A model generated the notes under the pieces. It worked only from the letters and a program-made list of their open reading frames with translations. It had not been told where the DNA came from and made no database searches. Positions 28,273-31,004 of a DNA stretch of 64,000 nucleotides are shown piece by piece (positions within the stretch are counted from its first letter, which is position 1; every line of letters starts with the position of its first letter). The position numbers were made by a program, and so were the translations under genes. The stretch comes from Escherichia coli (GTDB lineage: Bacteria > Pseudomonadota > Gammaproteobacteria > Enterobacterales > Enterobacteriaceae), in assembly GCF_003334335.1 (NCBI RefSeq), contig NZ_QOWQ01000010.1; one strand, given 5' to 3'.

Positions 28273-29706
28273 CTAATTGTTCTGATAAATATCTTTATAC
28301 AAACGGCTTTCAAAACGCACTAACGGAATACGGCGATTACGCTGATCCGCAGGTTCTACTGCATAGCCAGAAAGATATTGCACAAACGCCATTCGTTGCC
28401 CGCTCGCTGTGGTAATGAATCCCGCCAGGTTATATACCCCCTGCAACGAACCGGTTTTCGCTGAGACTTTTCCATCCACGCCCGCCTGATGCAGACCTGC
28501 ACGGTACTGCAAAGAGCCGTCATAGCCCGCCAGCGGCAGCATGGAGATAAAGTTAAGTTCATTGTCGTGTTGGGCAATGTATTGCAGCACCTGCATCATG
28601 GTGGCGGGGGCAATCAGGTTATGCCGCGAAAGCCCTGAACCATCGGCAATAATGGTGTTTCCAATATCGACACCGGCTTGCTGGCGCAGGATCTGACGCA
28701 CGGCGTCCGACCCGGCCCGCCATGTTCCAGGCACATTGAAGCGCGCATGGCCTATCATGCGGAAAACCGTATCGGCGATCATGTTGTCCGACTTTTTCAG
28801 CATAATCTTAAGCAGATCGTGCAGCGGGGCCGACTGTTTACTGGCAACTACCGTTCCAGGTTCGTTAACCTGAGTCTGGCGCAGCAGTGTTCCGCTCCAG
28901 GTGATACCCGCCTGTTTTAACTCATCTTTCAGAATTGCACCGGCATAGCTGGCTCCATCCTGCACGGCAAAAGCCAACGGGAGCGGCTCAGAACGTTGTG
29001 GCAGGCATCCCGTCAGCGTAAAGCGGTTCAGGTCGCCTGGCACCACATCCAGTTCGCAGTATTGCGCTTCGGCAGAACCACGGGGGAGGGTGCGTACCTG
29101 GCTGAACATCGTAACGGGGTAATAAGATGCCACGCGTATAAAAGCCATATCACCAGGCTTTGGGGCACTGTAGAGCGAGACGGAGAAACAGTTGCGGTCA
29201 ACTATGGCGGCGGCAGGCGGAGCGCTAAAGCATTGTGTCATGTCATTCCATGGCCAGCCGGGGGCTTTATCGTGGCTGGCGAAAATGGAGGTATCTATCA
29301 ACACATTGCCATCGATTTGGTTGACGCCAGATTTTTTCAAAGTCGCGACCATATTGCGAATATCCTGACGTTTTAACGTCGGATCGGCACCAAATCGCGC
29401 CACTAAGTCACCCTTAAGTACGCCGTTTTCCACATTGCCTTTGGTTTCAAGCGTCGTGGTAAAACGAAAATCGGGGCCGAGTTGAATCAACGCCGCCAGC
29501 GCAGTAATCACTTTCTGGGTACTGGCAGGCAGCGCCATCTGCTGACTGTGGTAATCAATAGCGGGGGCCGACGCGCCGACTTTTTGCACCATCAGGGCAA
29601 GGTTGGCACCAGCGGGGAGTTGAGTAATGTACTCATCAACATTTGCGGCCTGAACACTGAACGCTATACAGCTGGTCAATCCGATGATAAATCTGGAAAA
29701 TCGCAT
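28273..29706 (-). CDS. dacB: D-alanyl-D-alanine carboxypeptidase/endopeptidase PBP4
   Basis: 477 aa with signal peptide; SxxK motif STQK. Confidence 0.96.
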   Translation of the reverse strand: MRFSRFIIGLTSCIAFSVQAANVDEYITQLPAGANLALMVQKVGASAPAIDYHSQQMALPASTQKVITALAALIQLGPDFRFTTTLETKGNVENGVLKGDLVARFGADPTLKRQDIRNMVATLKKSGVNQIDGNVLIDTSIFASHDKAPGWPWNDMTQCFSAPPAAAIVDRNCFSVSLYSAPKPGDMAFIRVASYYPVTMFSQVRTLPRGSAEAQYCELDVVPGDLNRFTLTGCLPQRSEPLPLAFAVQDGASYAGAILKDELKQAGITWSGTLLRQTQVNEPGTVVASKQSAPLHDLLKIMLKKSDNMIADTVFRMIGHARFNVPGTWRAGSDAVRQILRQQAGVDIGNTIIADGSGLSRHNLIAPATMMQVLQYIAQHDNELNFISMLPLAGYDGSLQYRAGLHQAGVDGKVSAKTGSLQGVYNLAGFITTASGQRMAFVQYLSGYAVEPADQRNRRIPLVRFESRLYKDIYQNN

Positions 29707-29782
29707 AATCTCGCGCTAACAACCTGGAATCGAGCCGTCATACTACGGCGCAACGCCCTATAAAGTAAACGATGACCCTTCG

Positions 29783-29810
29783 GGAACTTCAGGGTAAAAT
29801 GACTATCAAA
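29783..29810 (+). promoter_or_regulatory. Candidate sigmaE-type promoter upstream of greA
   Basis: GGAACTT, 16-bp spacer, TCAAA fits the sigmaE -35/-10 pattern; greA is a reported sigmaE regulon member. Confidence 0.5.
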
Positions 29811-29825
29811 ATGTGAATTGTAGCT

Positions 29826-29859
29826 GACCTGGGACTTGTACCCGGGTCGGTATTTTTTT
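29826..29859 (+). terminator. graL: greA leader attenuator hairpin (3-prime end of the GraL leader RNA)
   Basis: GACCTGGG-ACTTGTA-CCCGGGTC followed by GGTATTTTTTT, about 95 nt upstream of the greA ATG. Confidence 0.6.
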
Positions 29860-29953
29860 GCTTCTGGTCCCGGTAAGGAGTTATGCCGGGCAGGCCGAAC
29901 AGCCGGGGTGGGTGAAGACTTGCCCTATCAGGAATATTCAAGAGGTATAACAA

Positions 29954-30430
<477 letters not shown>

Positions 30431-30473
30431 GAATTACCCAATACTCAAGATGTTGATGTATTGTAAAGAAAGG

Positions 30474-30497
30474 AAAAAGGCCGCTATGCGGCCTTTT
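30474..30497. terminator. Bidirectional intrinsic terminator between greA and yhbY
   Basis: AAAAA-GGCCGC-TAT-GCGGCC-TTTT; A-run and T-run flank the stem. Confidence 0.8.
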
Positions 30498-30585
30498 ATC
30501 AACGAACAGAGCGTGGCATTTTGCTCTCCTGCCTGCGGAAAACCCCTCGTTTTACACAGCAAATGTGTGTAACTTTAGGATAATC

Positions 30586-30879
30586 TTAGCGTGGCAGCGA
30601 GATTTTACGTTCTTTAGTTGGGCGATAAAGCACCAGCGTTTTACCGATGACCTGTACATTACAGGCGCCGGTTTCGCGCACGATAGCTTCCACGATCAAG
30701 GTTTTAGTTTCGCGATCTTCGGTGGCGATTTTCACCTTGATGAGTTCATGGTGCTCTAACGCTTGTTCAATCTCGGCCAGCACCCCTTCGGTCAAACCAT
30801 TACTGCCAAGCAGAACAACTGGCTTGAGCGGATGTGCCAGACCTTTCAGGTGCTGTTTTTGTTTAGTACTCAGATTCAT
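30586..30879 (-). CDS. yhbY: CRM-domain RNA-binding protein YhbY
   Basis: 97 aa, MNLSTKQKQHLKGLAHPLKP. Confidence 0.93.
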   Translation of the reverse strand: MNLSTKQKQHLKGLAHPLKPVVLLGSNGLTEGVLAEIEQALEHHELIKVKIATEDRETKTLIVEAIVRETGACNVQVIGKTLVLYRPTKERKISLPR

Positions 30880-31004
30880 CGTATTTTTTGCTTACGTTGG
30901 GATTGAAAACGGGTCATTCTACCGCCATCTCCCATATATCACCAAATAGGCGCGTAAAAATTTACGCAATTGGTTACGATGAGTTATCCCCATGGGAAAG
31001 TTAA

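Follow-up and report, generated by a model that had tools for sequence, protein, structure and literature searches.

The window, the 64,000-nucleotide stretch of DNA analysed here, belongs to the Escherichia coli chromosome and carries the divergent genes dacB (28273–29706, minus strand, with its ATG at 29706 in the list of open reading frames) and greA (29954–30430, plus strand). The greA coding sequence comprises 158 amino acids and corresponds to RefSeq WP_001148001.1, transcription elongation factor GreA. In the same neighbourhood, obgE, rlmE and ftsH lie on the plus strand and yhbY lies on the minus strand, convergent with greA. The two divergent genes are separated by an intergenic spacer of 247 bp (29707–29953), delimited by the open reading frames and by the RefSeq annotation of the identical stretch of MG1655. 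This is the spacer length that the first-pass annotation had given upstream of greA; the spacer runs from the dacB start to the greA ATG at 29954.

The spacer is 100% identical to that of E. coli K-12 MG1655, in which both dacB and greA are annotated, and the greA reading frame follows the leader directly on its 3´ side. A 461-bp stretch spanning the spacer is also 100% identical in MG1655 and in many other strains, and was found in all of the complete E. coli genomes searched (5426/5426). The RefSeq annotation (PGAP) contains no feature between dacB and greA in MG1655, and the greA leader with its small RNA, GraL, is unannotated in every E. coli genome listed (for example NZ_CP032667.1, 554306–554766), despite the existence of an Rfam family.

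Beyond greA, a perfect palindromic hairpin of 10 bp, AAAAGGCCGC-TAT-GCGGCCTTTT (30475–30497), lies where greA and yhbY converge and is likely to be a bidirectional terminator serving both strands. This hairpin gave sub-threshold Rfam matches to STnc540 and STnc420, the only other Rfam families encountered in 29000–31000, and they were discarded as chance likeness among terminators.

The overlapping promoters of greA

The presence of a σE-type promoter upstream of greA, proposed from the sequence in the first-pass annotation, was confirmed by a consensus scan and by published mapping. The promoter, P2, consists of GGAACTT (29783–29789), a 16-nt spacer and TCAAA (29806–29810) on the plus strand (29783–29810), with its +1 at A29816. 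It is a perfect σE consensus and the sole match in the 64-kb window, with 0.01 matches expected from dinucleotide-preserving shuffles. The motif conforms to the consensus of the σE (RpoE) regulon, quoted as GGAACTT N16 TCNAA by Potrykus et al. 2010 (PMC2836576), who mapped overlapping σ70 (P1) and σE (P2) promoters at this locus. Its start lies 6 nt past the −10 element, where a distance of about 6–7 nt is required. Initiation at P2 by the σE holoenzyme has been demonstrated with the ApA initiator (PMC2836576).

The first-pass account had overlooked the σ70 promoter. A promoter scan detected a σ70-like P1, ATGACC-N17-TAAAAT (29772–29800, plus strand), which overlaps the P2 motif. The greA AUG has been placed at +150 from P1 (Dylewski et al. 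2019, PMC6829880); since this AUG is at 29954, the P1 +1 falls on A29805. This position agrees with the ApU initiator (A29805, T29806) and with the four A residues at +4 to +7 (29808–29811), and the P2 start, 11 bp downstream, agrees with the ApA initiator. Both starts thus rest on the published numbering together with the initiating dinucleotides, with σ dependence taken from the literature only. The published position of the dacB AUG (−98) is one base away from the present count, a trivial discrepancy. In reporter assays, the activity of P1 alone was nearly equal to that of P1 and P2 together (PMC2836576).

The terminator, GraL and the read-through leader

Downstream of the promoters, terminator scanning, folding and covariation identify an intrinsic terminator hairpin on the plus strand (29823–29851), with an 11-bp stem formed by GCTGACCTGGG (29823–29833) and CCCGGGTCGGT (29841–29851) and a 7-nt loop, ACTTGTA, followed by ATTTTTTTGC. 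The stem contains seven G–C pairs and also includes G–U pairs, and 12 nt separate it from the P2 −10 element. The 8-bp GC hairpin that had been noticed first, GACCTGGG/CCCGGGTC, does exist, 15 nt after the −10 element, but it is only the inner part of this longer stem. The hairpin is followed by the A-U7-GCUU tract (29852–29863), which is the zone of imprecise termination and is identical to the published AU7GCU2: A29852 precedes seven T residues (29853–29859) and then GCTT. The T7 run ends 94 nt before the greA ATG, in line with the distance of about 95 nt originally estimated. The 59-nt RNA from P1 to the end of the terminator (29805–29863) has a folding energy of −21.4 kcal/mol (z = −4.17), a stability not matched by any of 200 shuffled sequences. 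In the surrounding 1.1 kb, the terminator scan returned five sites against 1.1 expected.

Potrykus et al. demonstrated, in vitro as well as in vivo, that groups of short RNAs, which they called GraL, are released at an intrinsic terminator whose 11-bp stem is followed by AU7GCU2 (PMC2836576), and precisely this arrangement occupies 29823–29863. Termination reaches approximately 66% in vivo and 60% in vitro, with 3´ ends distributed over about 10 nt (PMC2836576), in agreement with the first-pass expectation that most transcripts end as a short leader RNA. The reported lengths are 49–59 nt for transcripts from P1 and 37–47 nt for those from P2 (PMC6829880). Combined with the mapped starts, these lengths place the 3´ ends at about 29852–29863, exactly the A-U7-GCUU tract, so that the GraL array covers 29805–29863 on the plus strand.

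The same identity emerges from Rfam. The family RF01769, "Enterobacteria greA leader", matches 29737–29858 of the window on the plus strand over its whole length (model positions 1–124 of 124), with 127.5 bits against a gathering threshold of 60 and an E-value of 2e-24. The identification of GraL is thereby upheld: the match is full-length, the sequence is that of MG1655, the strain in which the published GraL work was done, and the published landmarks map exactly onto the window. In its sequence, its two promoters, its 11-bp stem, its UAU7GCU2 tail and the +150 distance, the element is indistinguishable from the published greA leader (RF01769; PMC2836576, PMC6829880). Nothing in the sequence examined is at odds with this reading, and we consider it almost certain that the element is the E. 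coli greA promoter–leader module producing GraL. What the present analysis itself establishes is the identity of the sequence, the uniqueness of the P2 motif, the stability of the fold, the Rfam match, and the conservation and covariation of the terminator.

Read-through transcripts carry a 5´ UTR extending over 29864–29953 on the plus strand, which was characterized by folding and by comparison of leaders from Escherichia and its relatives. It contains a predicted hairpin at 29869–75/29884–90, a 9-bp hairpin, GGGGTGGGT/ACTTGCCCT (29905–13/29918–26), about 30 nt ahead of the greA ATG, and the greA Shine–Dalgarno sequence AAGAGG (29940–45). The 9-bp hairpin has four G–U pairs in K-12 that are Watson–Crick pairs in other Escherichia, including one exchange of C–G for U–A, and is a possible counterpart of the published P3/P4 primer-extension stops (PMC2836576). 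Two further candidates in this region were rejected. A mini-ORF starting at ATG 29883 (MPGRPNSRGG*, within 29875–29915 on the plus strand), with AAGGAG 2 nt before its ATG, lies past the terminator and loses both its start (GTG) and its stop (TGG) in E. albertii, which indicates that it probably does not encode a real peptide. In the minimum-energy fold of E. coli, UGCUUCU at the end of the U-tract (29859–65) pairs with AGAGGUA of the greA Shine–Dalgarno region (29941–47); this anti-Shine–Dalgarno pairing is predicted in 18 of 104 species, not including all Escherichia, and was not retained as a conserved feature.

Conservation in Enterobacterales

Species-representative genomes (one per species) were scanned with the pattern GGAACT..G.T.AAAT..A.CAAAATG, which covers the promoter only, so the terminator played no part in the selection of sequences. 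The pattern matched 113 stretches, all but four from Enterobacterales, and the four exceptions (Pedobacter, Chryseobacterium, a Synergistaceae MAG and a Desulfotomaculaceae MAG) are chance matches without greA downstream. The genera represented include Escherichia, Atlantibacter, Shimwellia, Mangrovibacter, Yersinia, Serratia, Pantoea and Erwinia, as well as Mixta, Tatumella, Dickeya, Pectobacterium, Brenneria, Lonsdalea and others. In 107 of the Enterobacterales stretches, greA is recognisable about 170–300 nt downstream of the motif.

Among the 105 distinct 131-nt sequences, each folded singly, 103 form a hairpin of 8 bp or more with five or more U in the 9 nt directly after it, at a median hairpin energy of −17 kcal/mol. 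A stricter rule demanding an uninterrupted stem is passed by 73 of the 105, the remaining 32 having bulged stems. The 11 pairs of the E. coli stem are kept in 87.1% of the alignment cells, compared with 56–63% after a shift of the partner by one column. Changes on both sides of a pair occur in 8 of the 11 stem pairs (69 cells), and the covariation score is not reached by any of 500 shuffles. Covariation was counted on the E. coli structure because RNAalifold, applied to a plain MAFFT alignment, returned only a weak 7-pair consensus, a consequence of hairpins that are out of register in some rows. Published work on four species had already found pairing to be maintained by 17 of 18 stem mutations (PMC2836576 / PMC6829880), and the present comparison extends that statement to 105 sequences. 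The terminator is kept with compensatory changes in at least four Enterobacterales families. This retention shows selection on termination, but does not show it for a function in trans.

Some details of the E. coli terminator are more restricted. Escherichia and Intestinirhabdus are the main genera with the closing G–U pair and with the A interrupting the U-tract, most other genera having GG-UUUCUUUUG. As these features are not general, imprecise termination may not be general either beyond tails of the E. coli type. In a few species, the leader from P1 to the greA ATG is much longer, at 206–279 nt as against about 150, which points to insertions past the terminator.

The promoter side of the region was compared in the same set. 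The first position of RF01769 lies 68 nt ahead of the mapped P1 +1, so that over half of the model (55%) describes untranscribed promoter DNA, without mapped greA transcription. The four 5´ helices of the model (29737–29804) display no covariation among the 105 sequences, in a stretch partly fixed by the search pattern: a single cell contains a double change, the score equals the shuffled mean, and two pairs cannot form in 48 and in 61 of these sequences.

Two blocks upstream of P1 lie outside the search pattern and are nevertheless invariant or nearly so in the 105 Enterobacterales sequences: CATACTACGG (29739–48) and AAAGTAAAC-GATGACCC (29762–78), which flank a variable spacer of fixed length. 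Within the second block, AAAGTAAAC (29762–29770, plus strand) is an A/T-rich segment at −43 to −35 of P1, and GATGACCC belongs to the P1 region. Read on the plus strand, the blocks fit an UP element and the P1 −35 element, and AAAGTAAAC is probably the UP element of P1. Read on the minus strand, they give TTTACT-N18-TAGTAT, with the −35-like TTTACT inside AAAGTAAAC, a plausible candidate for a σ70 promoter of dacB; it scores 8 of 12 and therefore stays below the threshold of the promoter scan. It could also be imagined that the blocks are more than a dacB promoter and an UP element and form a shared operator through which a new regulator would coordinate the divergent dacB and greA, with the covarying hairpin at 29905–29926 adding a further, previously undescribed layer of post-transcriptional control, an idea to which we assign a low probability.

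Control of greA by a leaky terminator

The σ dependence of the promoters, the termination efficiency, the release of the transcripts and the feedback by GreA rest on the published papers (PMC2836576, PMC6829880). P1 and P2 initiate at 29805 and 29816, 11 bp apart, and the polymerase enters the stem 18 nt (P1) or 7 nt (P2) past the start. After transcription of the 11-bp GC-rich hairpin and UAU7GCUU, about two thirds of the complexes stop at some ten adjacent positions, yielding GraL RNAs of 37–59 nt, and the remaining third continues through the leader of about 90 nt into the greA mRNA. With a leaky terminator placed behind two strong promoters, greA output becomes the product of promoter strength and read-through. 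P2 ties both greA and GraL to envelope stress, with P1 acting as a constitutive supply. GreA, whose dosage is set in this manner by promoter and leaky terminator, is the principal factor against backtracking and for transcription fidelity in E. coli.

Catalytically active GreA raises termination in vivo, directly or via another factor, which closes a negative feedback loop. It has been shown that GreA lowers its own expression 2–5-fold in vivo, and that this effect depends on the catalytic activity of GreA and on the presence of the GraL sequence in cis, but not on the promoter (PMC2836576 / PMC6829880). The feedback was seen in vivo but not with purified components (PMC2836576 / PMC6829880), which suggests an accessory factor or an indirect route; Hfq is considered unlikely to be this factor in the cis role of GraL (PMC2836576 / PMC6829880). 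Released GraL is reported to act in trans as well, with nudE as its likely target, on limited published evidence. The nudE gene is located outside the 64-kb window.

The leader had been described in the first-pass annotation as an attenuator. The term fits only loosely, and the classic sense of the word, in which an antiterminator structure or the translation of a leader peptide decides between termination and read-through upon a signal, finds little to sustain it. The terminator does sit in a 5´ leader with partial read-through, and read-through does change in vivo with the level of GreA. Nevertheless, the transcript has no more than 18 nt (P1) or 7 nt (P2) ahead of the stem, too little for a competing helix, and the fold of the 59-nt leader RNA shows none. 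The sole small ORF is the one at ATG 29883, past the terminator, with its Shine–Dalgarno-like motif 2 nt away and its loss in E. albertii. Termination efficiency does not change over growth (PMC2836576), the only known modulation is by GreA, an effector that increases termination instead of relieving it, and the authors of the published work themselves place the system outside the attenuator and riboswitch categories. The classic attenuator is therefore largely refuted and keeps a very small probability. It is less improbable, though still unlikely, that the terminator does no more than damp two over-strong promoters constitutively, with GraL as a functionless by-product. Termination efficiency appears unregulated in growth and in vitro, no direct GraL target had been found in 2010 (PMC2836576), and the short transcribed segment outside the stem and the U-tract coincides with promoter elements, making the conservation of the GraL sequence inseparable from that of the promoter. 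Against it stand the fitness advantage conferred by overexpression of GraL but not of scrambled GraL (PMC2836576), the need for the GraL sequence in cis in the GreA-dependent feedback, and the compensatory changes that preserve the terminator in at least four Enterobacterales families.

That the promoter motif and the hairpin coincide by chance, or that the hairpin acts at the level of protein or DNA and has nothing to do with transcription from P2, is favoured by nothing except the general caveat that consensus scans yield false positives. This reading is already refuted, and its residual probability is negligible: the P2 motif is expected 0.01 times in the window, no shuffled sequence among 200 folds as well, the terminator is conserved and covaries in the 105 sequences, and direct experiments on the same sequence have been published. 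The preferred reading, the greA promoter–leader module producing GraL, is correct and not new. As the leader was published in 2010 and is covered by an Rfam family of its own, the present analysis adds no new biology. The gain is a small one, namely a broader comparative confirmation, in 105 Enterobacterales sequences, of selection on the terminator, together with two remarks for curators: the boundaries of RF01769 take in untranscribed promoter DNA, and RefSeq lacks an annotation at the site.

The greA leader resembles leader-peptide attenuators (such as trpL) and riboswitch terminators in that an intrinsic terminator in the 5´ leader sets expression via partial read-through. Unlike them, it has no antiterminator, anti-antiterminator, leader peptide or ligand-binding aptamer, and its effector, GreA, enhances termination. 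Another terminated 5´ leader RNA has been reported to act in trans, and GraL is alike in both respects, but it has no aptamer, is far shorter (37–59 nt) and has 3´ ends spread over about 10 nt. Enterobacterial small RNAs that depend on σE include MicA, RybB and MicL. GraL shares with them a short RNA that starts at a consensus σE promoter and is ended by an intrinsic terminator; unlike them, it is the leader of a protein-coding gene and is made from a σ70 promoter as well, so it is also present without envelope stress.
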